Source: a virus (lineage: Duplodnaviria; Caudoviricetes). Taken from it: a stretch of 64,000 bases of DNA. A program made the translations under genes and the position numbers. The notes under the pieces were generated by a model, which saw nothing but the letters and a program-made list of their open reading frames with translations, did not search any database and was not told the DNA's origin. The stretch is taken from the IMG/VR virus record IMGVR_UViG_3300033067_000589, positions 22,058 to 86,057 of that record; one strand, written 5' to 3'. Of the stretch, positions 10,660-62,764 are shown piece by piece; position 1 is the stretch's first letter, and every line of letters begins with the position of its first letter.

Positions 10660-11269
10660 TATGAATATATGTGCCACGACCAAGAGATTTACCTTGTTTG
10701 ACCATTTTGTCTTCAAGGTCTTTCTCTTGGTTTTTTATTAATTTCCCAACATCTGATACGACCTTTAATGTTTCTGAAATATGATCCATGAACGATCCCT
10801 TGAGCGACTGCAACCTTTCGGTTCTATCCTCATCTAGCTCTCCTCTCCTTGCTTCCTCTTCTAGTTCTTGTATCTGTTTGTTGTAGTCATCAATATATTC
10901 TTGCTTTACCTTGTTTATTTTTTCAAAGTCAGCAAGTAGTGAGCGATAAATGTCAGCTTGTACATCTGGGTAAATTACACCAAAGATAGATTGTGCGTTC
11001 TTAAATAGCTGATTTCTATAAAACTCTGATATATTTGTGCGATTATCTTCATCTGGTGGATATTGATTTACGATTCCGGTTACAATAGCATCTCTATCTT
11101 TTTCCGGGATTGCTCCAAAAGGGTGAGGATTACAGAATAAATAGAGGTAGTATAGGCCATTCATACCATACTTTGATTTGGCTATATCTCTAAATTGTGG
11201 CACTTGCAGGGCTGCATCAATATCTACAATGATGGAAAAATTATTTTGTTGGTCTATCTTGCAATACAT
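10643..11269 (-). CDS. Hypothetical protein (208 aa), possible terminase small subunit
   Basis: Clean ORF, helical, on the same strand as TerL; function inferred from position only. Confidence 0.45.
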   Translation of the reverse strand: MYCKIDQQNNFSIIVDIDAALQVPQFRDIAKSKYGMNGLYYLYLFCNPHPFGAIPEKDRDAIVTGIVNQYPPDEDNRTNISEFYRNQLFKNAQSIFGVIYPDVQADIYRSLLADFEKINKVKQEYIDDYNKQIQELEEEARRGELDEDRTERLQSLKGSFMDHISETLKVVSDVGKLIKNQEKDLEDKMVKQGKSLGRGTYIHKIRRD

Positions 11270-11283
11270 ATTTAAAAATTAAT

Positions 11284-11291
11284 TATATTTG
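11284..11291 (+). promoter_or_regulatory. Bacteroidota-type -7 promoter box
   Basis: TATATTTG matches TAnnTTTG, 24 nt before the ATG at 11315. Confidence 0.5.
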
Positions 11292-11314
11292 TACTCAGTA
11301 AATATACGGAAAAT

Positions 11315-11920
11315 ATGGCGTTCAAAACTCTAATCAAGAAAAGAAAAACATCCGGCACATCAAGTATATCAAAATCTAAGTTTGCAAAGTTAGATAAAAG
11401 AACACGAGCGCACGATATTCAAACAGAATACAGTTCATCAGACGTTGAAAATATTTCAATTACAGCAAGATATGAAGATGGTATTTTAGAGTTTACTACA
11501 AGAGGGAGATGGATTTCATTAAACTTCATTATGACCAAATCACATTGGGCTAAAGATTCTGGAATTAAGGAGATAACCAAGAAAAAGGTAAGAGAGGCAG
11601 TAAAAGGATTGAATGTAAAACTATCAGACTTTGTAATTATACTAAGATACAACTCAAGATTGGATGACCATAATACTGTAATGATGCCAAAGTATTTTAC
11701 AGACTCAATTAAGCACAACTGGCTAAAGAATAATAACGGAAGAATATTGGTAGATGCACAAGGAAAAAGAATAGTTGAATACGAAGGAATCATAACAGAA
11801 GATAATAAGAACTTTTCAAAGGGAACATTACTTATTCCAGATGCTACTTTACCACACGACACATATATAATGAAATACGTTCCATTTGATAAGATAAAAG
11901 ACGTATTGACTAAATTATGA
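11315..11920 (+). CDS. Putative RusA-like Holliday junction resolvase (divergent)
   Basis: RLDDHN...KYFTDSI...IITEDN resembles the RusA DxDN...K...D...DD pattern. Confidence 0.4.
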   Translation: MAFKTLIKKRKTSGTSSISKSKFAKLDKRTRAHDIQTEYSSSDVENISITARYEDGILEFTTRGRWISLNFIMTKSHWAKDSGIKEITKKKVREAVKGLNVKLSDFVIILRYNSRLDDHNTVMMPKYFTDSIKHNWLKNNNGRILVDAQGKRIVEYEGIITEDNKNFSKGTLLIPDATLPHDTYIMKYVPFDKIKDVLTKL

Positions 11921-13617: not shown

Positions 13618-15510
13618 TTACCTGCCAAATGAAAACATATTCTCACTTCTACCAAACCCGAAGTCTACATAAGCGGTTGGCACAAACTCATTATCAACTT
13701 CTTCATCTGTTCTTATTGTTCCAAGGTTCTTTGTTTTCTCAAGTGCCAATAATACCAAGTGGAAAGCTGATGTTATATCGTTGTTTACTTCTGACCTCCA
13801 ATAGTTAAATGAATCCATCAGGGCTGTATGTGATATTCTTAAATGCCTGTTTGCCTCAAAGTACTTAATACCAAGTACAGTCATGTCTGCTACGACTGAA
13901 TCTGAAAGCCTTACACCAATTTCTCCATTTACATAAAGTAAATTTTGCATAATACCCTTTTCTCTGGCGTATCCAATAAAACCTGCTGATTCATTATGCT
14001 CATACATCACCTTTGGGTCGTAGTATAAAATTGCCTTATAGAACTCTTGCCAATCAAGCATACGGTTTTTATAGCGACCAAGATAAAAAGCAACTGGCAA
14101 GTCTGATAATTCACTATACACTGATGGTCTTCTGTATATAACCATGGAGTTTAATGAATCTGAATAGGTTACTTTATCTTTATACACGTCATCTATCCCA
14201 GCTACAAAAGCATTTTCTACATCTTCCATATTATACCCAGCACCTTCTAGTACCTTCCAGAATCCGGTAGGATCTTCTTTGAAAATAACCCTACCTGTCA
14301 TCTTTCCTCTTACGTCTTTTTCTTCTACAAACTTTCCTGTAATCCAATGTGAATCTAAGTCATGTTCTAGTATATGTAGATAATGAGAGTCTATCTTTTC
14401 TTTGTCGTACTCTGTGTCATTGCTAGGAATAAATGATTCATAAACAGTAAGTGGGTTCTCTTGAATCTTCATTTTTAAATCCTCTGGCTTTAGGTCTGGA
14501 GAATTTCTTTCTTCTTTAATAACCTTTTCTGCCTCTTCCCTTAGTGATATACCTGTGTAGTAATCAATATAACCTTGATAGCAAATTGATGCCGGAGTAA
14601 ATATGGTTTTGAATTTATTACCTTTTGGTCTAAGAAAGTTATCTTTATAGTCTGTGGACTTGTTATTGATACTATCCGATGTACCTCCAACTAAAAGCAT
14701 ACCTACTTTATAATCCCCTTGCCTTAGTGTATCATTTGCTGAACCAATAAAAGGGGATAGGTGTGTGTGAATACCTGCCTCGACTACAACAATCAATCCT
14801 AGTGCATCTCCACGAACACCAGAACCTTTGGCATCTACAATAGTTAGGTTGATTGAATTTACGATAGAGAAATTTCGACCATCTATCCAGTAGCCTTGAG
14901 ATATGACTTCTGCATTATCTACAACTATATCGAGTTCTTTATCATCATCATCTCTTTTAAAGAATGGGTGGATATATTCATACATCTTTTTAAGTCTCCT
15001 TCTTTCTTTTTCGATGATTGGCTTATTGGGGTATGCTCTGAGTATATTTTGATTTTGATTAAATAAGAACCACCAGAGGGTTATCCCCCACTCGGAGGTA
15101 GACCATCCCTTACGACGACCTTTGGCCACAATGATATTATCAGCATCTTTAAATCCGTACTTTGTCATTCCAGACATTCCGTACCAAACTTTATCAAAAT
15201 ACACTTTATCTCCATCTCGATAATAAGGCGAGTAATACCCTTCTCTTCCTGTGAGTTCATCAAAGATACTTACCTTCATAAAATTTAAGAAAAAGTAATA
15301 GATAGGGTTGATAAAAACACCATCTGGGGCTATATACCCTTCTGTGCATCTTCTTAATTGTTCAACCCACCAATCCCTATCGCTCGCGAAAGAAGATGAT
15401 GTAGGATTTGGTAGGTCTGGTACTCTTTCTTGAAGAACTGGTCTGTATTTGACTTGTGCTGAATTAGGGTCTTTTAAAATCCTATCTTTATCTTTCCTTT
15501 TTAATTTCAT
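13618..15510 (-). CDS. terL: Terminase large subunit (630 aa)
   Basis: Walker A-like VAKGRRKGWS, Walker B-like LIVVVEAG, RNase H-like AGIDD and NDITSA; crAss-like length and organisation. Confidence 0.9.
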   Translation of the reverse strand: MKLKRKDKDRILKDPNSAQVKYRPVLQERVPDLPNPTSSSFASDRDWWVEQLRRCTEGYIAPDGVFINPIYYFFLNFMKVSIFDELTGREGYYSPYYRDGDKVYFDKVWYGMSGMTKYGFKDADNIIVAKGRRKGWSTSEWGITLWWFLFNQNQNILRAYPNKPIIEKERRRLKKMYEYIHPFFKRDDDDKELDIVVDNAEVISQGYWIDGRNFSIVNSINLTIVDAKGSGVRGDALGLIVVVEAGIHTHLSPFIGSANDTLRQGDYKVGMLLVGGTSDSINNKSTDYKDNFLRPKGNKFKTIFTPASICYQGYIDYYTGISLREEAEKVIKEERNSPDLKPEDLKMKIQENPLTVYESFIPSNDTEYDKEKIDSHYLHILEHDLDSHWITGKFVEEKDVRGKMTGRVIFKEDPTGFWKVLEGAGYNMEDVENAFVAGIDDVYKDKVTYSDSLNSMVIYRRPSVYSELSDLPVAFYLGRYKNRMLDWQEFYKAILYYDPKVMYEHNESAGFIGYAREKGIMQNLLYVNGEIGVRLSDSVVADMTVLGIKYFEANRHLRISHTALMDSFNYWRSEVNNDITSAFHLVLLALEKTKNLGTIRTDEEVDNEFVPTAYVDFGFGRSENMFSFGR

Positions 15511-37934: not shown

Positions 37935-38879
37935 ATGTTGATGAAAGGTTATAACAACAGTGATGCAGCTAGAGCACAAGGTAGCATTGTGAATAATTCA
38001 CAAATGTACACCTACGCTCCATGTTACACAATGGAGAAACCTAATTATTTTGTTATGCTAGGTAAAGGCGATAATAGCGCACTTACATTAGCCAACAGTT
38101 TAATTAAGGCGACTGGTTGTACATCACAAGGAAAGGCACTTGAGATTGCTTTCAAGTCTATTCAAAGTAACGTGCAAGTTTTATCTAGCACAGAGGCAGC
38201 AAAGCAAAAGGTAACATTCACAGTTGATAAAACAAAGATTGATTGTAATGCTAAGTTAATCGGTTTTACAATCGAGAAACGCCAAAACGATTGTTCTGCT
38301 GATGCAAATGTTTACAATGTATATGTTCCACTTGTAAAAACTTGTGAAGACGATACACAAACAAATGCAACGCTTGCTGCCGAACTCGCAGCTAGAGCGG
38401 TACAAACGCCTGATTATCCAGTTACAGTAACTGTAAACCCTAGTAACACAGCTCAGGTTATTGTTGAGGCAAAAACAGCAGGTGAAGGATTTTACGTTCA
38501 AGGTTTTGAGAACTTGACGTATGCTCTAGTGACTGCTAACTCTGCTGAAACTTTGAAGGGTAAAAACTTAGGAGATTTCGGTATTGTGCCTTGTGGTACT
38601 GTTGCTGATAATGCTTCGTTGAAGGTTATTTTGCTTCAAATCAAAGAAGATGTACAGTTGGATATTCACTTCTATGGTGATTCTAATTACTCTTCTGAGT
38701 CAGGAAGTTATGTAGGTGCATTGAAAACAGTTGCTTTCATTAGTGATGGAACTCATGCTGCCAATGTACAATACAACACATTAGCTACTATTCTTGCAGG
38801 TGGATTCTCTCCAGCTTCTGAATACTATGCTGTGTCAGATACAATTACACCGCTACCTACTACAACAGCAGGAGCGTAA
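37935..38879 (+). CDS. Abundant structural/decoration protein (314 aa)
   Basis: A/T/V-rich, codon bias similar to the MCP, followed by a terminator. Confidence 0.55.
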   Translation: MLMKGYNNSDAARAQGSIVNNSQMYTYAPCYTMEKPNYFVMLGKGDNSALTLANSLIKATGCTSQGKALEIAFKSIQSNVQVLSSTEAAKQKVTFTVDKTKIDCNAKLIGFTIEKRQNDCSADANVYNVYVPLVKTCEDDTQTNATLAAELAARAVQTPDYPVTVTVNPSNTAQVIVEAKTAGEGFYVQGFENLTYALVTANSAETLKGKNLGDFGIVPCGTVADNASLKVILLQIKEDVQLDIHFYGDSNYSSESGSYVGALKTVAFISDGTHAANVQYNTLATILAGGFSPASEYYAVSDTITPLPTTTAGA

Positions 38880-46146: not shown

Positions 46147-48069
46147 TTACCAAGGTTCACCATCAATAACCTCGTTTGGAATTTGATAATCTATTTTTCT
46201 CTCTGATTCAAAACTAGCAATCGCCTCAGATGGTGTGATGACTTTTACTGTTTGCTCTTCTTTAGATGAGCCGTACATAATATTCCATGCCTGCTCTAGT
46301 GGATTAAATCCGAACTCATCAAAATATCTACTTGACTTTCTATCGTAATTGAATATAGTAACACCGGGGATACCTACCAATTTTTGTTTCTTAATTTTAA
46401 GAGAGTGTATCTCAAAGGTGGTATCTTCTGGTGCTGACTTTTGCTTTGGTCTTCTGCCTGACAAGAAGTTATCTACCTTAGCCGACCATATTGCTCCACC
46501 AGATAAGTCCATGAAGTGAATAACTGGATACTCTCCATCTTTATCTACTCGTACACTTTTTGGGTGTGTGATGATGTGATAATATATATTATTTTCTCGC
46601 GCAAACCGAGTTCTGATTGCTAAGAAGTTACCTATATAAATATCATCTCTACCGTCATATTGGTGAGTAAGCTGATTGAATGGGTCAAGTATAACGCCAC
46701 CAACACCAAACTCCTTGATACAATACAAGAAGTTGGCTTCTAACTCCTCAACTGTGTGAGCGGTTTCTGGATAAATAAAGAAGAAATGCTCATTGATGAA
46801 TTTAGCTGCCACCTCATATTCTTCTAGCGTAGCAAAGTTACCATATTTTTTAGATTCTGGATCGACAGACTTGCCAATTAACATCTCAATCAATGTGTCA
46901 TAAAACTCAATAGATGGATAGTTCTCTGGTGAGAATATCGCCCATTTAGTTCCTACCATTACTGATTGGATAAGATACAGTTGCATTACAAATGTTGTCT
47001 TACCGCTATTACCCATACCTGATACAATCGTGAGTTCTTTCTTCTTGAATGTAAAGTGAGGGTCAAGCGTTGGAAAGAATGTAGTCGTACCACGCTCTTT
47101 CCCTTCGTAATACTGCCTTTTCATCTCACCCCAGTTATCCATCAATCTAATGACTGCATTGTTAGTAGGATTCTTTTCAGCAACCTCTGGCTCTGCATCA
47201 TATATAGGTTTCTCTTTACCAGACAGGATTGAATCGTGCAAAGCCCTAAGTTCTATCTTGTAATCTTCTCCATCAAATAATGTAATTACAGCGTTCTCGA
47301 TAAGATATAAATCTTTTTCAAGGATTTTGCCTGATGCCATAAATCCACCACACAACATACCAGCTTTTAATACCGTATTGTGGCGACTTCCTACTTGTGC
47401 ATTTCTAATCAACTCTACTACACGTTGAATAGCCTTGTAGTCTGACCAGTTACCGCCACCAGCAGGTGCAATAAACGATGGTCTAGCTACATCTTTCTCT
47501 TTTTCATACAAGAAATGTTCCCATATTGTAGCATCTTCATTAAGATATAAATCTGGGTCATAACTCTCAAAGCATAACCTAGATTCATTGATACCAGATG
47601 GATCTACTCCACTCCATCCATCTTTGGTAAAGAAATCTGCAAGACCTAAGAAATGCCCTCTGTGCCCTTCTTTTTTTGGAGGTATCTTTACTATTACCTT
47701 TACGCCATTCTCACTAGGAGAGATAAAAGCTATGTACACAAATGGTAATTCCTTTAACTTCTCTTTGAACTCATAAGGAGTAAGACCTCCAAGTTGCAAT
47801 TCATCAAAATCAAGAACAATTAAACCTGAGTGCGTAACCAATCCAGAGTCTTCTGGGTACATAAATTCACCAGATACACGATAGCCCGGAAGTGTATACT
47901 TTATTGCATTGATTTCTTTTTTATTTGCACCATTAGCAATGAGGCTTCTAATTTGATTTACCTTATTTACTGTCTTTGGTACACCATTCTTAATTCTCTT
48001 GATTAATGTCTGTATTGGCAAGATGTGAGGATCTTTATTCCATACACCATTATAGATAGTTACATTCAT
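46147..48069 (-). CDS. Primase-helicase fusion (BT4734/VirE-N AEP-like + SF4 DnaB/Twinkle-like helicase)
   Basis: HSGLIVLDFD...FISPSENGVK; GSRHN PriCT-like segment; Walker A SGMGNSGKT; Walker B VILDP. Confidence 0.85.
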   Translation of the reverse strand: MNVTIYNGVWNKDPHILPIQTLIKRIKNGVPKTVNKVNQIRSLIANGANKKEINAIKYTLPGYRVSGEFMYPEDSGLVTHSGLIVLDFDELQLGGLTPYEFKEKLKELPFVYIAFISPSENGVKVIVKIPPKKEGHRGHFLGLADFFTKDGWSGVDPSGINESRLCFESYDPDLYLNEDATIWEHFLYEKEKDVARPSFIAPAGGGNWSDYKAIQRVVELIRNAQVGSRHNTVLKAGMLCGGFMASGKILEKDLYLIENAVITLFDGEDYKIELRALHDSILSGKEKPIYDAEPEVAEKNPTNNAVIRLMDNWGEMKRQYYEGKERGTTTFFPTLDPHFTFKKKELTIVSGMGNSGKTTFVMQLYLIQSVMVGTKWAIFSPENYPSIEFYDTLIEMLIGKSVDPESKKYGNFATLEEYEVAAKFINEHFFFIYPETAHTVEELEANFLYCIKEFGVGGVILDPFNQLTHQYDGRDDIYIGNFLAIRTRFARENNIYYHIITHPKSVRVDKDGEYPVIHFMDLSGGAIWSAKVDNFLSGRRPKQKSAPEDTTFEIHSLKIKKQKLVGIPGVTIFNYDRKSSRYFDEFGFNPLEQAWNIMYGSSKEEQTVKVITPSEAIASFESERKIDYQIPNEVIDGEPW

Positions 48070-53737: not shown

Positions 53738-54751
53738 TTATACATAAGGATTCAACATTACAGGCATCAATAGATATTCTCCATTAATGATACCTGATCT
53801 GGTAGGGGTGGAAAGTGATATTGTGGTTGTCTCTCTCTTTTTATCCAACTTGAGATACTCAAGCATAAGCCTAGCATTGAATCCGATGGTTATTTCATCA
53901 TTACACATAATGTCAATCTTTCCGCTATACTCGGTTTTCCAATTTTCGTCTTCTGCCTGCAATTCAAGCGTGTCTCCTTTAAATAGAAATTCAACTTGAT
54001 GAGTGACTTGATTGGTAAAGCTATCAGCTAGTTCTAGTTTTTCAATCAGGTCCTTTGTTGGTACTGATGCTATTATAGAATTAGATTTAGGAATCACATT
54101 TCTGAAATCAGGAAAACGCTCATCTACCATCTTTATGTATAGCTTGTATTCATTATTAGATAATGAAATCCACAAGCCTTTTACTTCACACTCATACTTG
54201 CCACTAAGCCAAGCCAGTGGTGGTAGCAGAATATTTTTACCATTCGGAATGAAGCTATTGTCCACATCTCTAAATAACATACGATGAGCATCGGTGGAAG
54301 TTATTTGTTCGCTATCAATATATATCTGCATCATTGCAGGTCTAAGTTCGTTTTTGCCTGCAAATACACAGTACTCTTTGAATCCTTGTAGGTTAAGTGT
54401 ACCTGAATAATCGGGGTTATTCATGTCTGGCAATTTAGGATAATCCTCAACATCTTGACCATGTAATTTAAAGCTACCCTTGTTAGAATTGATAACAAGG
54501 GGTCGTTTTTCTTCCTGATACCCACTCGTATCAAAGTTGCTAATCTCCACCTTACTTGCTATCTTGTTTAATTTAGCAAAGTCCACGGTGAATGGACTAT
54601 CAAATTTTACTGGTGAATCAATCACCATAAATATTTGACAGTCTCCAGATAACTTAATCATCTGATTGTTTAAGAATAAAACATCCTCTGTAATGGGTAG
54701 AAGAGCTTTCTTTGATTTGACTTTGGACAATAGTCCTAATTGATTTTTCAT
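53738..54751 (-). CDS. dnaN: DNA polymerase III beta sliding clamp homolog
   Basis: NELRPAMM, STDAHRM, ERFPDFRNVIP, IGFNARLM, YLLMPV. Confidence 0.85.
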   Translation of the reverse strand: MKNQLGLLSKVKSKKALLPITEDVLFLNNQMIKLSGDCQIFMVIDSPVKFDSPFTVDFAKLNKIASKVEISNFDTSGYQEEKRPLVINSNKGSFKLHGQDVEDYPKLPDMNNPDYSGTLNLQGFKEYCVFAGKNELRPAMMQIYIDSEQITSTDAHRMLFRDVDNSFIPNGKNILLPPLAWLSGKYECEVKGLWISLSNNEYKLYIKMVDERFPDFRNVIPKSNSIIASVPTKDLIEKLELADSFTNQVTHQVEFLFKGDTLELQAEDENWKTEYSGKIDIMCNDEITIGFNARLMLEYLKLDKKRETTTISLSTPTRSGIINGEYLLMPVMLNPYV

Positions 54752-54842: not shown

Positions 54843-55580
54843 TTAAAGATACACTACATTTTTTTGTGGAGGATTTGCATCCCATATTGCCTCTTCTAAT
54901 TCGTCAATATCTCCATCAAATCCATAGGCGATGGAGGTATCAAAGGCATATAGAATGGTCATTTCTTTTTGTTTGCCATATTTCTTAGCAAACTTGATTG
55001 TGGACTCCATAGACACATGAGAGTCTATATTCATCTTGTTCTTGAACCACTCTCTTAGATAACTATAATCCCTGTGACTACTTATTCTTTGTTGAATAAG
55101 GTAGTTCTTGAATATCATGTTTACTCCTTTCTTGTCGTATCCATACCTGTATTGCAGATATGATATAACAGTCTGCCCGTCATAGAAGTATTCTTTCAAT
55201 TTAGAAAGAACAAACTCAAGAGGCGTTACACTTTCTTTTCCTGTCAGTCTGTACATACTAGGAAACTCTTTGTTTCTTCTGTCCAGATTGATAGATATAT
55301 GAGTATAGGTTTCGTCCTTGTATCTTGCAGCATGAACTACAAAGTACCATGTTACTTCATACAAACCAAATTCTAATTTTCCTTCTAATTCAATTTCAGG
55401 AATTTGTTTTTGTGTGTTATTCCTGATTACTTCCCATCGGTTATTCCCGGATCGGTTATTGGCTTTCTTTAAAAACCTATCTTGCCATTCTTGATTGTAC
55501 GGAATGGCATATAGGTCTTGAACCTGTTTAGTGTAAGGATTGTGCCTTACTTTATCGTAATACGACTTGATTGTTTTCAT
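54843..55580 (-). CDS. Hypothetical protein (245 aa)
   Basis: Clean ORF. Confidence 0.65.
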   Translation of the reverse strand: MKTIKSYYDKVRHNPYTKQVQDLYAIPYNQEWQDRFLKKANNRSGNNRWEVIRNNTQKQIPEIELEGKLEFGLYEVTWYFVVHAARYKDETYTHISINLDRRNKEFPSMYRLTGKESVTPLEFVLSKLKEYFYDGQTVISYLQYRYGYDKKGVNMIFKNYLIQQRISSHRDYSYLREWFKNKMNIDSHVSMESTIKFAKKYGKQKEMTILYAFDTSIAYGFDGDIDELEEAIWDANPPQKNVVYL

Positions 55581-57163: not shown

Positions 57164-58054
57164 CTATTTAATAGCCTTCATAAATTCATCCACATTTCGC
57201 TTTGGTACATACATACCAGCCTTAATATGCACGACCTTTTCGCCATCTTCTAAAAATCCCCTTTCTACGAGATTCTTATATCCTTCTCTAAATTGTTCAT
57301 TGGAGAAAGCAAAAAACGCACCGTATTTCTCTATGGCGTTTCTTACTTTTTTTGATGCCTTATCTTGTGCATCTTTTATTCTTTCTTGATTCAATAGCTC
57401 AATCTCTTCTTCTTCACCCCAGAGGCGAATAGCTAGAGATACTTTTTCTTGCAATTCCTTTACAGCTTTGTTAGAATACTGCAAGCTCATGCTGTGTGGG
57501 CGTTTGTCTGGGTTGTCAAGTAGAAACTGATGGCGCTTTTTAGCCTTCTCAAGCTCAAACTCAAAATATTCTAAACAGTCAGGCATTGACAAATCTATCT
57601 TATTAGCCCTTTCTGCCCAGTATTCGGCACGGCGTTCATATTCTTTTGCCTTTTCGCTTTCTGCTACACTTTTACCCATGCGCTCCCAGTTGCGCTCAAT
57701 GAGCTTCCTATGCCTCCGTTCGGAGTGATGCCCTATCTTAATTGGTTCACCTAGTGCAAGGAACTCTCGCCCCTCTTGGCTTGCCTCATAGTATTTTTCA
57801 CTCCTCTTTTCAGCATTGGCAGCATAGCCTTCTAGCTTGCTTGCCTTGTTCTTTGCTCTCTCTTGGGAATTAAACCCATCTGTACGGGTAACGGAATATA
57901 AGAAACATCCGTCCTTTGTTCCCATGAAGTTGTGGACTTCATTTTCGATTTCTTTTCCGTGTTTTGTTTCGATGATAATAATATCACCTTTTTTGTATTG
58001 TTGCTCACACTTAGCAACAAACACGTTTGGACAATACTTTAAGTACGTGTTCAT
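57164..58054 (-). CDS. DUF3560-domain protein
   Basis: LGEPIKIGHHSERRHRKLIER...AKEYERRA. Confidence 0.8.
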   Translation of the reverse strand: MNTYLKYCPNVFVAKCEQQYKKGDIIIIETKHGKEIENEVHNFMGTKDGCFLYSVTRTDGFNSQERAKNKASKLEGYAANAEKRSEKYYEASQEGREFLALGEPIKIGHHSERRHRKLIERNWERMGKSVAESEKAKEYERRAEYWAERANKIDLSMPDCLEYFEFELEKAKKRHQFLLDNPDKRPHSMSLQYSNKAVKELQEKVSLAIRLWGEEEEIELLNQERIKDAQDKASKKVRNAIEKYGAFFAFSNEQFREGYKNLVERGFLEDGEKVVHIKAGMYVPKRNVDEFMKAIK

Positions 58055-58067
58055 AAAAACTTTTTAA

Positions 58068-58529
58068 TTAATGATTTAATAACTGATTGATTTCTTGCAT
58101 GAGTTCTTCATGCTTTTTGTACTTACTCCTTAATCCATAGTAATACTTGTCGTCTAACCTTGCATAAAAGGCATACAAGTCAGCCGTATAGCATTCGCTG
58201 ATAAAGAAATAAGACCCATTATCAAACTTGGTGTACCTCATCGGAGGTAAACACTCAAATGCCTCCCACCAGCGTTCTTCTGTGATCTCTTTTAGTGGTT
58301 TACATAAGCCATCTAAGTATGGTTGATAATACTTAGAATCAAATTCCTCCCAAGTAAGGGCCACCAAGTTTGGTAGCCCCTTTTCTTTCTTGTATTCGTC
58401 GAAAGTATAATCGGAATACTCCATTCGTATAGTGCCGTCACTTTCTTTTCTAGCTGATGTTATTATTCGACCACAAAAAATGTCAGGGTCGATTACATAT
58501 AATCTGTTCATAACTTTAATCACACCCAT
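58068..58529 (-). CDS. DUF1419-like protein
   Basis: EITEERWWEAFECLPPMR...FFISECYT. Confidence 0.65.
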   Translation of the reverse strand: MGVIKVMNRLYVIDPDIFCGRIITSARKESDGTIRMEYSDYTFDEYKKEKGLPNLVALTWEEFDSKYYQPYLDGLCKPLKEITEERWWEAFECLPPMRYTKFDNGSYFFISECYTADLYAFYARLDDKYYYGLRSKYKKHEELMQEINQLLNH

Positions 58530-58538
58530 TGGTTAATA

Positions 58539-58577
58539 AACTCCAATAGTAGTGGGTGCTTTCCTACCACTGGAGTT
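58539..58577. repeat. Intergenic hairpin, type B
   Basis: AACTCCA/TGGAGTT outer stem; contains AATAGTAGTGGG. Confidence 0.7.
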
Positions 58578-58582
58578 ATTAC

Positions 58583-58735
58583 TTAAATTGCGAATCCGTA
58601 CTCCGCCAAAGACTTGCCGGACTTGGTGGTAAATCTACCTTTTACCCTGCGGAATGTATCCACTGGGTAGTTTTCTTCGTTGAATACTACCATATAGGAT
58701 AGCCTATTCAACTTTTCAATTCTGAATGTTGCCAT
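58583..58735 (-). CDS. Microprotein (50 aa; not in the track)
   Basis: Hand translation MATFRIEKLNRLSYMVVFNEENYPVDTFRRVKGRFTTKSGKSLAEYGFAI; AAAGT-ATG context. Confidence 0.55.
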   Translation of the reverse strand: MATFRIEKLNRLSYMVVFNEENYPVDTFRRVKGRFTTKSGKSLAEYGFAI

Positions 58736-58800
58736 ACTTTTTTAAATAATTAAATTGATTAAACGCCTACTCTATTAATGGATTTTCAGCAAACCTCCAA

Positions 58801-58968
58801 TTACAGCTTAAAAAGTTTTAGTAACAAAATTGACACAAACGTAACTCCCATACCTTCCAGTACAAGGGTTACATCTTTAAGCCCATAGCCACGAACCATG
58901 AGCCCACCTGCTACACCTAGGCACAAAAGCACCAAGATGTAGCATAAAATCAAACGCACCACTCTCAT
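58801..58968 (-). CDS. Two-TM membrane microprotein (55 aa)
   Basis: ATG at 58968 overlaps the upstream stop (ATGA); MRVVRLILCYILVLLCLGVAGG... Confidence 0.6.
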   Translation of the reverse strand: MRVVRLILCYILVLLCLGVAGGLMVRGYGLKDVTLVLEGMGVTFVSILLLKLFKL

Positions 58969-59129
58969 CGCTTCGAGAATTTGTTGCGAATTAACATCGC
59001 TCCCATAAAAGAGAACGATGTTAATTCGCCAATAGCCAATAACGTGATATGTTTCAGCGCAATACCACAAAGCGCAACTCCCACTGATAAGCACAAGCCC
59101 ACCAATAGGACAATTTCCTTTTTGTCCAT
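58965..59129 (-). CDS. Two-TM membrane microprotein (54 aa; not in the track)
   Basis: Hand translation MDKKEIVLLVGLCLSVGVALCGIALKHITLLAIGELTSFSFMGAMLIRNKFSKR. Confidence 0.6.
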   Translation of the reverse strand: MDKKEIVLLVGLCLSVGVALCGIALKHITLLAIGELTSFSFMGAMLIRNKFSKR

Positions 59130-59167
59130 GATTTAATTGATTAATAATTGTCCACCCATTATAATTA

Positions 59168-59206
59168 ACCCCAATAGTGGTGGGTGGTATTGCCTACTAT
59201 TGGGGT
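59168..59206. repeat. Intergenic hairpin, type B
   Basis: ACCCCAATAGT/ACTATTGGGGT 11-bp stem; contains AATAGTGGTGGG. Confidence 0.8.
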
Positions 59207-59219
59207 GTTGATGGTGTTT

Positions 59220-59456
59220 TTATTCAATCGGAATAAGTAAATACCTTTGAGATTCTATAAAATCTCTTTCCTCATTAGACAAGATGACTTGCGCCTCTGA
59301 GCCTGTTGCATGGATAGAGCCAGAGTCATTGACTCCAACTATTTCTACTTTTCCAGATGTACGAACTAGAAAGTCCGTCTCTGAGACATTCTCAGTTGCA
59401 TCTGAGAAGTGCGCATTCTTGATTTTAGTCCAGATTAAATCTATGATTGTAGCCAT
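59220..59456 (-). CDS. Hypothetical protein (78 aa)
   Basis: Clean small ORF. Confidence 0.55.
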   Translation of the reverse strand: MATIIDLIWTKIKNAHFSDATENVSETDFLVRTSGKVEIVGVNDSGSIHATGSEAQVILSNEERDFIESQRYLLIPIE

Positions 59457-59612
59457 AATAATAATACCTGATTCACCTACTCATCAGGAGGTTTTAATTT
59501 GTTTACGTCACACGACCGCTCTAAGCCTAAAAACCTGTTTATGCACGCTTAGACGTGTTTACAAATGCTGTGGCAATGAGCAACAAGCCCACCACCACAG
59601 CGTTTAGAAGAA

Positions 59613-59924
59613 TTACAGACACTCTACTGGGATTTTAGGTACTGCCACATATTCCCATAAGGGATTGGGGCAATATTCTTCTATTTGATTGGTGACATAG
59701 TCACCATTGCTAATGTGAAAGATAACACGTTTTTCTTCCATTGGGACTGGAAAGGTCTTCCTTACAAAGTCCTCCAATTCCTTAAAGCCGTATCCCATTT
59801 TAAGGAATACCTTTTCATTATTTGGCAAGTGTGCCACAGCACACACTACATATTTCTTGTGGCGAATCAGCCATCCCAACAACTCTGAATTGTTTTTTAA
59901 TCCGAATAATTCTACGAACTCCAT
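59613..59924 (-). CDS. Hypothetical protein (103 aa)
   Basis: A-rich leader; C-terminal WEYVAVPKIP. Confidence 0.6.
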   Translation of the reverse strand: MEFVELFGLKNNSELLGWLIRHKKYVVCAVAHLPNNEKVFLKMGYGFKELEDFVRKTFPVPMEEKRVIFHISNGDYVTNQIEEYCPNPLWEYVAVPKIPVECL

Positions 59925-60750
59925 AAGATTATTGATTTATATTTTAAAAATTTGAATAAACTCAGAACCATAGACTTAACCAATAGCCAAACCTAATATC
60001 TACCTAATCAAAAGTAAATAATAGATAAGACACAATAAGCCTAATAAATAATACATCCATAGCTATACTACATAACACTAGACATACATACATATTCACT
60101 ACTATCTATACATATAGTACCAAACATACATACATTACCCAGTGTTACTATACATATTAACCCACACTCACAAACCACACACTATATACTAATAGTGCTA
60201 TTTGTAGTCATGAATAACTATGTAGATACGTGCTTTGTGCTATGTACACAAGGTTTACACTGTACGCATTTGTAGCGTGGTTTACACTGAAACAAAGTGT
60301 TATGTATGTAAATATTACCCATGATATGCAAACTACATACATAATACATAGGTAATAAGTACTATACATGAGCCACGTACCTAATACATACGCTACAATT
60401 ACGATACATACGCTACAATTATAATACATGAGCCACACGGAGTGGGGGTAAACCCCAACCCACACACTCACAAATCGCACACAATAAACCACACAAATAT
60501 TGCACTATTCTAATATCATAGATACCAAAATAGCGTGTTTGTATCCTAAAACATAGGATAAAACTAAGTTTGTGTAGTTTTAGCTATAAACAAGGTGGCT
60601 TTGAGTACGTACTTTGAGCCACGTGGTACGAATTGTAAATACAAATCACTAGCCAAAAATTGACCAAAGATTTGTACAAACAAAAAACCACAAGCCACAA
60701 ACCACGAACTCAAAGCCACGAACCTTAGCAGAAAAGCAGAAAAAAAATTT
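59925..60750. repeat. Non-coding C/A-skewed region with degenerate direct repeats
   Basis: ATACATACGCTACAATTA x2 (60384, 60404), ATACATGAGCCAC x2 (60364, 60424), CCCACACTCACAAA x2. Confidence 0.7.
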
Positions 60751-60754
60751 GGGC

Positions 60755-60782
60755 AAAAAAAAAGCCCTGCTTTCGCAGGGCT
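60755..60782 (-). terminator. Intrinsic terminator
   Basis: Minus strand AGCCCTGC-GAAA-GCAGGGCT followed by T9. Confidence 0.9.
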
Positions 60783-60788
60783 CGTTTG

Positions 60789-61664
60789 TTAGGATTCTTT
60801 GAGCGTTTTCTTAATCTCATTTAGCACTCTAACTTTTGCAATTGTCTCAATTGCGTGCTTATTGTGTTTACCATCTTTGAGTAATTTTTCGGCTTTCTTT
60901 ATTGCCTTTTCCTTTTCATTTTTCATGTATTCATTTTCTGAGTATGGTAAAGAATAAGATGGTTTATATTCAAAACCTAAACTTTCCAAAAATAAACCTA
61001 CATTTCTTTTTTCCAATAACTTAGAAAAACCAAAAGAAAATCTCAATTCTCTTTTGTTACTATATACAACTAGAAATAAGCCATCTAGTTTAAAGTAGTT
61101 GTAGCCATAATCTTTGTGGTAACAAATACCTTTGTATGTAAACATAGATGGCTTAAAAGCATCTTTAAAATCTTTGATTTTAATAAAAGAGCCATCAAAG
61201 TACTTTTCTAAGATGGCTTGTTTGCCATCTAATATCATACTTTCTATATTTGTTTTTGAGATTACTTTACACCAATCAGTTGGAATATTAATTGAGATAC
61301 CATCTAACTTTGCTTTCCTTTCTTCTAAACTCTTTTTATTGCGTTTTTCTCTAATTGTTTTGTAAATAAGATGGATTTGCTCACTTGTTAAAATTGTACC
61401 AATTTCCAAATTTGGCACGCCATCTATTTGTGTTATTTCTAGTAAATCCATCTCACTTTTGAGACGGTTATTAATACTGATTTTTACATCTAGAGATGGC
61501 GTACTAACTTTACGTAATTTTGGCTCTTTAAATGCCTCTCTTTTGCTTTCTTTAAATTTGAAAATTTCGCTTGCGCTCATTTCGTCAAATGATGGCTGAT
61601 TTACCGATAATGCACCTTTTCCAATAAGGAAATCAAATTGAGAAATTTTGTTTTCTACTTGCAT
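60789..61664 (-). CDS. Isolated hypothetical protein (291 aa) carrying motif repeats in its DNA
   Basis: Monocistronic with its own terminator; K-rich; five CCATCTA/TAGATGG copies inside. Confidence 0.65.
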   Translation of the reverse strand: MQVENKISQFDFLIGKGALSVNQPSFDEMSASEIFKFKESKREAFKEPKLRKVSTPSLDVKISINNRLKSEMDLLEITQIDGVPNLEIGTILTSEQIHLIYKTIREKRNKKSLEERKAKLDGISINIPTDWCKVISKTNIESMILDGKQAILEKYFDGSFIKIKDFKDAFKPSMFTYKGICYHKDYGYNYFKLDGLFLVVYSNKRELRFSFGFSKLLEKRNVGLFLESLGFEYKPSYSLPYSENEYMKNEKEKAIKKAEKLLKDGKHNKHAIETIAKVRVLNEIKKTLKES

Positions 61665-61702
61665 GATTTTAAAAAATTAATTGATTAAAAATTGATTAAA
61701 AA

Positions 61703-61796
61703 TGTATCAAATTTGATACATAGCTAACTAATTAGGTTATAAGCCTAATTAGATGGCTAACTAAAAAAACGTCACAATTTTTTAGTTAGCCATCTA
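61703..61796. repeat. Three adjacent or overlapping inverted repeats
   Basis: TGTATCAAATTTGATACA perfect palindrome; CTAATTAGG/CCTAATTAG; 19-bp TAGATGGCTAACTAAAAAA stem. Confidence 0.9.
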
Positions 61797-62241
61797 GCAA
61801 TATTGCTAGTTAGTCTTATTCGCTACCTAAACTCACAACTATTAGGTTATGGCGTAATAAGAGTATATATATAAAGCCATCTAGCTTTATATTGTGCCAA
61901 TAAGTCAAAGATAAAATCTTTATTTCTATGGAATTGAATTTCGGAGTATTCCTATGTATTGGCTTTCTTTTTGCAAAAACTTGCATTTAGTCGCCATATT
62001 GCCATCATTTTAGAAAAAACAAATAATCCATCTAGTTAGATGGCTAAACGTCTAAAAATCTAGCAACCGATTACGATACATTTTACCATATACTACTAAA
62101 GAGCTATACAAGTCTATTATACTTGTATATGCGACTTGCATACATATACAAGAGTTTTCATGTTGTCTATTACGACACAACAAATATGGTATATGTATTT
62201 CGCAATTCCAAATGTAATTTCGATATTCTTTATTTTGTGCA

Positions 62242-62350
62242 ATAGATTATAGGAATAGTACAATGTTTCTATGAATATTAATATAGATTATAAGAATAGT
62301 ACAACTATTTTCATATTGGTTTTGTCCAATCCAAAATAAGAATAGTACAA
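62242..62350. repeat. Three iteron-like direct repeats
   Basis: ATAGATTATARGAATAGTACAA at 62242 and 62283; ATAAGAATAGTACAA at 62336. Confidence 0.8.
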
Positions 62351-62508: not shown

Positions 62509-62590
62509 CTGAATCACTTTCCACAAAAAAAAGCCCCACTTGTATTTCTACAAATGAGGCACTGGTTAGGGGGGGTAAGAAAAAACTACT

Positions 62591-62764
62591 TCAAGGGCTT
62601 GCAACGTAACGATACAACGAAAGAATAAAACAGGTTGCAATAAATAACGACCTTTTATCTTCGCTCCATCTTGCTGGATTAAACTCTAGTGGTATAAATG
62701 AGAATACTAGGTATGATACTAGGACTATCAGCACATAGGGTAATAGTTTGTTTATCTGTTTCAT
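62591..62764 (-). CDS. Two-TM membrane microprotein (57 aa; not in the track)
   Basis: Hand translation MKQINKLLPYVLIVLVSYLVFSFIPLEFNPARWSEDKRSLFIATCFILSLYRYVASP; ATGA-coupled. Confidence 0.6.
   Translation of the reverse strand: MKQINKLLPYVLIVLVSYLVFSFIPLEFNPARWSEDKRSLFIATCFILSLYRYVASP

Follow-up and report, generated by a model that had tools for sequence, protein, structure and literature searches.

Ten exact copies of the word CCATCTA, or TAGATGG in the opposite orientation, are gathered within 963 bp (61081-62043) of the genome of an uncultured phage. These sites are real and are under selection as DNA, even where this runs against the coding of protein. That they are binding sites selected at the DNA level and tied to the orphan gene that carries half of them is well supported by sequence comparison, because the enrichment survived codon-preserving nulls and the motif is kept in a close relative. 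Judged by alignment with a further phage, they are shown to be co-inherited with the allele of that gene. The best reading, a tentative one that we hold at somewhat less than an even chance, is a cognate protein-plus-sites module, probably a replication origin with an autoregulatory inverted pair, in which we infer both the identity of the binder and replication initiation as the outcome.

The window, that is the whole stretch of DNA analyzed here, makes up the final 64 kb of an IMG/VR contig of 86,057 bp, which is classed as linear and has a CheckV completeness estimate of 49%. On its left the window carries tailed-phage genes (large terminase, portal, major head protein, and tail fibres), and a minus-strand block encodes primase-helicase, sliding clamp, and endolysin; the orphan gene is located among early-type small genes. 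The host is probably a marine member of Flavobacteriia, because the nearest cultured relatives of the primase-helicase are those of Maribacter, Tenacibaculum, Cellulophaga, and Flavobacterium phages (25-37% identity). Matches to the primase-helicase in PHROGs span residues 1-618 of 640, with no sign of an extra domain. Encoded in the contig's first 22 kb are thymidylate synthase, a DNA methyltransferase, a helicase, an Ant-like protein, and a DnaD-like protein of 257 aa (contig 10795-11568, minus strand, outside the window). The C-terminal 60 residues of the latter match DnaD-like helicase-loader, O-like, and replisome-organiser PHROGs, and on this similarity it is a candidate for a conventional origin-binding or loader protein; its gene and the DNA around it showed no repeat array, and the two CCATCTA copies lying 192 bp apart inside it are within chance. 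Two Rfam matches were also recorded on the minus strand of the window: a full-length Pistol self-cleaving ribozyme (59501-59558; 47.7 bits against a gathering score of 34.5), situated in the non-coding gap separating two small early genes and with a similar sequence at the equivalent place of the close relative, and a DUF805b RNA motif (58764-58800) that at 35.8 bits is barely at the threshold of 35.6.

Outside the array the 7-mer occurs at about 0.13-0.27 per kb. In the 64-kb window 27 copies were counted, compared to 8.4 ± 2.9 after dinucleotide shuffling, and among all 7-mers of the contig CCATCTA has the joint highest local count in 1 kb, the sole tie being the low-complexity ATACATA. The 8-mer GCCATCTA is found 13 times in the whole 86-kb contig, with eight of the 13 at the array locus, and no second cluster of the word was found in the available 86 kb. 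When the ten sites are aligned, the pattern T(7/10) W A(7/10) G(8/10) CCATCTA R emerges, corresponding to a full site of about 11-12 bp with the approximate consensus TWAGCCATCTAR. The 6-mer core CCATCT/AGATGG is present in 16 copies from 60871 to 62043, 11 of them in the orphan gene, which holds five exact and six core-only sites, while the other five exact sites lie upstream in non-coding DNA (Table 1). The exact sites are mixed in orientation (seven sense and three antisense) and irregularly spaced, 9-330 bp apart overall and 64-120 bp apart within the gene; by arithmetic on the site coordinates, the spacings of 9-330 bp match no 10.5-bp helical phase.

Table 1. Positions, in the window, of the word array, its surroundings, and other phage genes.
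Feature	Position	Strand	Remarks
Orphan gene	60789-61664	-	291 aa, basic, pI 9.4 (ORF translation)
Site 1, CCATCTA	61081-61087	+	encodes LDG on sense strand; 11-bp inverted pair with site 2
Site 2, TAGATGG on + strand	61145-61151	-	encodes (K)PSM
Site 3	61225-61231	+	encodes LDG; partner is core-only site 61211-61216 (AGATGGC-N6-GCCATCT)
Site 4	61300-61306	+	encodes LDG; unpaired
Site 5	61420-61426	+	encodes IDG; partner is core-only site 61494-61499 via common ACG flank
Core-only 6-mer sites (six)	60871, 60957, 61211, 61369, 61448, 61494		span 60871-61499
Sites 6 and 7	61750-61796		outer ends of perfect 19-bp inverted repeat; candidate operator
Site 8	61877-61883	+	adjoins TATATATATA run and conserved TTGACTTATTGGCA box
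Sites 9 and 10	62028-62043		head-to-head palindromic pair CCATCTA-GT-TAGATGG; 7-bp arms 62028-62034/62037-62043
AT-rich stretch	61663-61742		15% GC; between in-gene and upstream site groups; holds 20-bp palindrome 61703-61722
Hairpin 2 of conserved three-hairpin architecture	61728-61752		
Intrinsic terminator	60762-60783	-	directly after orphan gene
Intrinsic terminator	62533-62560	-	ends upstream transcription unit
Divergent cassette	60791-62093		alignable to L012 only at island 61612-61727 (leader and first codons)
Large terminase	13618-15510		46 kb from orphan gene on map
Primase-helicase	46147-48069	-	640 aa; 13 kb from orphan gene
Sliding clamp	53738-54751	-	

An earlier, sequence-only reading of this DNA had reported the ten exact 7-mers, the 291-aa frame on the minus strand, two hairpin pairs among the upstream sites, and near-matches of the form GATGGC; the copies were recovered at every position and orientation given, the frame encodes what was claimed, the hairpin pairs are real (perfect arms of 19 bp and 7 bp), and the near-matches correspond to the 6-mer core. 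Its estimate of about 33% GC fits neither the window (about 36% overall) nor the array locus, which alone is about 30%. It had further placed the locus near the genome end and suggested DNA-entry signals there, which is unsupported, as the locus lies 2 kb from what is only a contig end, with no demonstrated genome end, and the close relative L009 carries on in synteny.

Selection is supported by a codon-aware null, in which the protein sequence is fixed and synonymous codons are resampled by the phage's own usage. Five in-gene 7-mers are observed against 1.6 expected (P = 0.003), and four 8-mers against 0.27 expected (P < 5e-5, 0 of 20,000 resamplings), whereas permutation of synonymous codons within the gene itself gave P = 0.014 and P = 0.001 for the two word lengths. 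The 6-mer core, with its 11 in-gene copies, compares with 3.0 expected and a maximum of 8 in 5000 resamplings, and its density is 12.6 per kb in the orphan gene vs. 1.22 per kb in other ORFs. The sequence-only reading had staked its claim beforehand on a codon-preserving null of this kind and on retention of the motif in relatives; the enrichment of the 7-mer survived the former, and the outcome of the latter is given below. That chance, codon usage, or a repeated LDG peptide makes the word, without any DNA-level function, is thus effectively refuted. Four of the five in-gene 7-mers do encode [LI]DG, and elsewhere in the phage about 45% of [LI]DG is also written TAGATGG. However, besides the rejected nulls, a repeated peptide cannot cause the word because the core is present in each of the three reading frames and in either orientation, encoding tripeptides as various as PSL, EMD, IDG, IHL, LDG, AIL, PSM, PSY, and KDG. 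Moreover, half of the sites are non-coding, the close relative keeps every site, and LDG is not conserved among homologues: when residues were compared across the five-member protein family, with homologues 24-32% identical, four of the five exact in-gene sites fell on non-conserved residues, the only conserved ones being L193-D194.

The only close relative found, L009, is a 14-kb Logan contig from an independent run, which ends short of the primase-helicase gene. Its orphan gene is 92% identical in amino acids and 88% in nucleotides (102 of 876 positions differ), and the gene is, by this comparison, under purifying selection. All ten exact sites, with 70 of 70 motif bases, are retained in L009. 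None of the ten positions inside the sites that could change synonymously has done so, compared to 26% elsewhere (P = 0.047, a value of limited power as it comes from a single relative). The non-coding zone 61665-62060 is 96% identical, above the identity of the gene. L009 also has an eleventh, in-gene site, which arose from a burst of substitutions that turned FDEMS into LDGLT at the price of five amino-acid replacements. The degenerate core-only sites turn over, since two of them (60871 and 61369) are gone in L009. Apart from the array, L009 carries an extra 208-aa gene (1439-2065, equivalent to about 62560-62600 of the window) whose motifs look DNA methyltransferase-like by eye; this whole-gene indel between close relatives is inserted between two GGGGG(A)GGTAAGAAAAA-like repeat copies, of which the window has a single one.

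The orphan protein gave nothing above noise in Pfam and only phrog_12874 (unknown function, E = 0.009) in PHROGs; altogether, nothing usable was obtained from Pfam, PHROGs, PADLOC, PDB sequences, the ESM Atlas, Foldseek, or VIA-align. By Pfam and PHROG it falls outside the O-like and replisome-organiser families, the PHROG hits of that kind belonging to the DnaD-like gene described above, and no Pfam, NCBI-type, or PDB sequence hit links it to the Rep_3/RepA family. In its predicted structure, the N-terminal 60 residues are disordered, and an alpha/beta core is followed by a helical hairpin at the C-terminus. The AF2 models are moderate (pLDDT 65 and 71), and with them Foldseek returned nothing at E ≤ 0.001 against PDB and BFVD, and VIA-align gave a best Z of 5.8, for the C-terminal helices only, and 3.9 for the core. 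Because the models are only moderate, the lack of a fold match should not be taken as a negative.

The two intrinsic terminators isolate the orphan gene, which is thereby monocistronic behind an 870-bp non-coding leader. The AT-rich stretch at its 5' end is the third least stable 80-bp window among about 86,000 in the 86-kb contig and is a candidate for an unwinding element or for a promoter/leader. The second least stable one, 62242-62321, lies in the AT-rich distal leader with three copies of a 13-mer, A(A/G)GAATAGTACAA (62251-62263, 62292-62304, and 62338-62350, plus strand), which recurs inverted at 60500-60512. These copies bracket the cassette described below, and since the word is also carried by two distant phages (L010 and L012), it is part of a conserved scaffold rather than a lineage-specific element; the word may be a promoter or the binding site of a second factor.

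Three stacked hairpins occupy the 140 nt before the ATG (61665-61800) in five of five loci (the window, L009, L010, L012, and L013), always in the same order: first a long one with a TTGTGAC-containing loop, then a short one, then an 8-bp palindrome, followed by the AT-rich leader. The stem sequences vary between lineages through compensatory changes and the TTGTGAC loop is conserved; in the window the long stem, hairpin 1, consists of two word copies, with arms at 61750-61768/61778-61796 and TTGTGAC in the 9-nt spacer. In addition, seven neighbouring site pairs of opposite orientation share pair-specific flanks outside the core (P = 0.001, permutation test; P = 0.009-0.024 with the big hairpin excluded), two exact sites are left single, and in L009 two weaker pairs have been disrupted with no compensating change. 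An exceptionally structured mRNA was also considered and rejected: the folding z-score of the orphan gene, -4.75, is uninformative because eight control genes of the phage gave -1.2 to -7.0. Those control genes (e.g., 54843-55580, 57164-58054, and 37935-38879) themselves fold more stably than their synonymous-codon-permuted versions, with a median z of about -3, which suggests that intrastrand structure either is selected for across the genome or has a compositional cause.

Beyond L009, profile searches revealed three distant homologues of the protein (P0003, P0006, and P0007; 24-32% identity), all on short Logan contigs, two such searches of a 5.8-billion protein set adding only P0006 and P0007. 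No relatives were found when IMG/VR and JGI metagenomes were scanned with the protein or its profile, the phage GenBank collection gave neither a DNA nor a protein match, and exact-pattern scans with the conserved flank yielded none for the 24-mer and chance matches only for the 14-mer and 19-mer. In L012, the DNA downstream of the orphan gene (58513-60763 of the window) is 80-88% identical in nucleotides and a neighbouring 78-aa gene is 83% identical in amino acids, whereas the orphan gene product is only 28% identical, and the gene body and the upstream DNA at 61727-62093 are unalignable at the DNA level. All ten sites lie within this divergent cassette (Table 1). Because the sites lie in the swapped segment and its flanks are conserved, the orphan-gene allele and the site-bearing DNA have been exchanged together, and such joint exchange between otherwise close phages is the pattern expected of a protein plus its cognate sites. 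At the homologous loci of the distant phages L010, L012, and L013, whose short contigs cover only 0.4-0.6 kb upstream, CCATCTA is absent, and neither the top k-mers nor those derived from hairpin arms form a significant word array of their own. A family-wide rule by which each homologue has its own word array was therefore rejected, and the array belongs to one lineage and is not a trait that can be seen across the family; in L013, GAAGTA(C) does occur at three positionally equivalent places, counts that are too small for a claim. The comparison with L012 showed that the non-coding stretch of about 860 bp beyond the 3' end of the orphan gene (59925-60790; L012: 1307-2093), with many ATACATA/GAGCCAC words and inverted repeats, is 80-88% identical in L012 next to a gene at 28%, which is unusually strong for non-coding phage DNA; it has no Rfam match.

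Taken together, we propose that the ten sites and some six degenerate copies would be cis-acting recognition sites of a sequence-specific DNA-binding protein, most likely the basic orphan protein itself, protein and sites forming one lineage-specific cassette. The protein would load on the single and inverted sites flanking the AT-rich stretch, and the resulting nucleoprotein complex, about 1 kb long, would open that stretch as a replication origin, while the perfect inverted pair, some 90-130 bp upstream of the ATG, could double as an operator limiting the protein's own synthesis. This reading is supported by the word enrichment, the codon-aware nulls, conservation in L009, the behavior of the cassette, and the non-conserved residues at the sites, together with the AT-rich window between the site groups, the pI of 9.4, and the monocistronic setting between terminators. 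Against it stand the failure to recognize any initiator or DNA-binding domain by sequence or by fold, as far as moderate models can tell; sites that at 7-12 bp and irregular spacing are unlike tandem iterons; the absence of an adjacent helicase or loader gene, a DnaD-like gene being elsewhere in the contig; and three distant homologues, on short contigs, with no significant word array of their own. Furthermore, AT-rich DNA and an upstream inverted repeat are equally expected for a promoter/operator, and the pair-specific flanks and covarying upstream hairpins also fit a single-strand structure. The sequence-only reading, in proposing an initiator gene with an internal origin, was borne out as to DNA-level sites tied to the gene; it found no backing in an initiator or DNA-binding family or fold, in the sites, which are short and dispersed rather than tandem iterons, in the gene, which is monocistronic and far from those of the primase-helicase, the clamp, and the DnaD-like protein, or in the distant homologues, which have no comparable array, so that an initiator can only be proposed. 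A bolder version, possible and on balance doubtful, would make the protein a new orphan-fold family of phage origin-binding/specificity proteins, with the word running through its own gene in every frame and either orientation and dictating residues such as the four [LI]DG, the whole being exchanged as a cassette between about 85%-identical marine Flavobacteriia phages as a replication-specificity or incompatibility determinant.

The same layout could be explained by transcription control with no role in replication, in which the orphan protein or another phage regulator represses or times an early gene, perhaps through a DNA loop that joins sites in the gene to those upstream of it. The long leader of a monocistronic gene, holding both the perfect inverted pair and the palindromic pair, would suit such a system, gene and upstream DNA vary together as a cassette, much as in immunity modules, and the gene stands outside any replication module. 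However, 11 core sites in coding sequence that force amino-acid choices are many for operators, and the least stable DNA lies exactly between the site groups; we regard this explanation as unlikely. Quite unlikely is an origin or site array read by a different phage protein, with the orphan gene merely hosting the sites. The phage does encode a primase-helicase and a DnaD-like, O-like protein, no DNA-binding fold was detected in the moderate models of the orphan protein, and a precedent for short bidirectional sites exists in P4 alpha and SaPI-type primase-helicases, which read short sites in both orientations. This is opposed by the swap of the sites along with the orphan-gene allele between conserved flanks, and by the PHROG coverage of the primase-helicase, which leaves little room for an added DNA-binding domain.

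It is improbable that the word acts in single strands, as the core of local inverted repeats whose hairpins, in mRNA, 5' UTR, or ssDNA, would be recognized by shape and sequence. The seven pairs with specific flanks are what such a role would produce, as is the three-hairpin architecture kept in all five loci with different stems and a constant TTGTGAC loop. Yet the folding z-score is ordinary among the control genes, two weaker pairs decayed in L009 with no compensation, two exact sites have no partner, the orientations are mixed, and palindromic protein sites would show like covariation. Highly improbable, finally, is an array for packaging (pac, read by a small-terminase-like protein) or for partition (a centromere) plus its binding protein. 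A basic, uncharacterized protein would be compatible with it, and the pac sites of P1, SPP1, and P22, which are short repeated boxes inside small-terminase genes, offer a precedent; but the large terminase, instead of being adjacent, is 46 kb off on the map, the orphan gene sits among early-type small genes, and there is no sign of a genome end at the locus.

If the preferred reading of origin and initiator is true, it would offer a first way into how marine Flavobacteriia phages control their replication, and a protein family with no recognized fold would join the proteins that bind origins. Regardless of what the array does, the locus is a clean natural case of DNA-site selection overriding protein coding, as well as an example of a protein-plus-sites specificity cassette swapped among close phages. 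The placing of sites inside the binder's gene is a known, textbook design; here it occurs in a protein family with neither recognizable relatives nor fold, and with an unusual layout of the sites, dispersed and frame-independent.

Several known systems share parts of this design. In phage P4, ori and crr carry an 8-bp word in direct and inverted copies, in two groups, and the binder is the C-terminal domain of the alpha primase-helicase; the present locus is similar in its short word, both orientations, and two groups, but its array is inherited along with an unrelated orphan gene, and the phage's primase-helicase shows no obvious extra domain. In iteron plasmids and P1 RepA, iterons of 17-22 bp, regularly phased, lie on both sides of rep, and an inverted partial iteron serves as operator. 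Comparable here are the single sites on both sides of the gene start and the inverted pair of the same word upstream of the gene (the 19-bp perfect arms), whereas the orphan protein has no Rep_3/RepA winged-helix signature and no DnaA boxes were noted.

Origins within the initiator gene are found in lambda and Stx phages, and extra Stx iterons add 13 residues to the protein (PMC7466680). As in ori-lambda, sites for a phage protein would lie in that protein's own coding sequence with an AT-rich region beside them, site gain alters the protein (13 residues in Stx phages, FDEMS to LDGLT here), and the specificity of site plus protein is lineage-specific. Lambda differs in that its iterons, 4-6 in tandem and each about 19 bp long, occupy a linker in mid-O, and P comes after O. 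Here, the 7-12-bp sites are spread over 1 kb in both orientations with half of them upstream of the gene, so that no lambda-type tandem array (at least 3-4 iterons of about 18-20 bp in the gene) was found; the protein has no O-like domain, and in place of a loader or helicase gene directly downstream, the stop codon is followed by the terminator and about 860 bp of non-coding DNA. In SPP1, the origin oriL is inside gene 38 of the replisome organiser G38P, and there is a second origin, oriR (PMC6316719). Repeats together with an AT-rich unwinding element, here a candidate one, positioned at the gene of a known or putative origin-binding protein are common to both; G38P, however, belongs to a recognizable replisome-organiser family, with the loader and helicase genes 39 and 40 next to it, and its second origin has no counterpart in a second cluster within our 86 kb. 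The module therefore fails membership in the lambda O, SPP1, and iteron-plasmid systems, because it has no homology to them, no tandem iterons, and no adjacent loader or helicase gene, and it is best read, by analogy, as working like lambda O/ori, SPP1 G38P/oriL, or the iteron plasmids.
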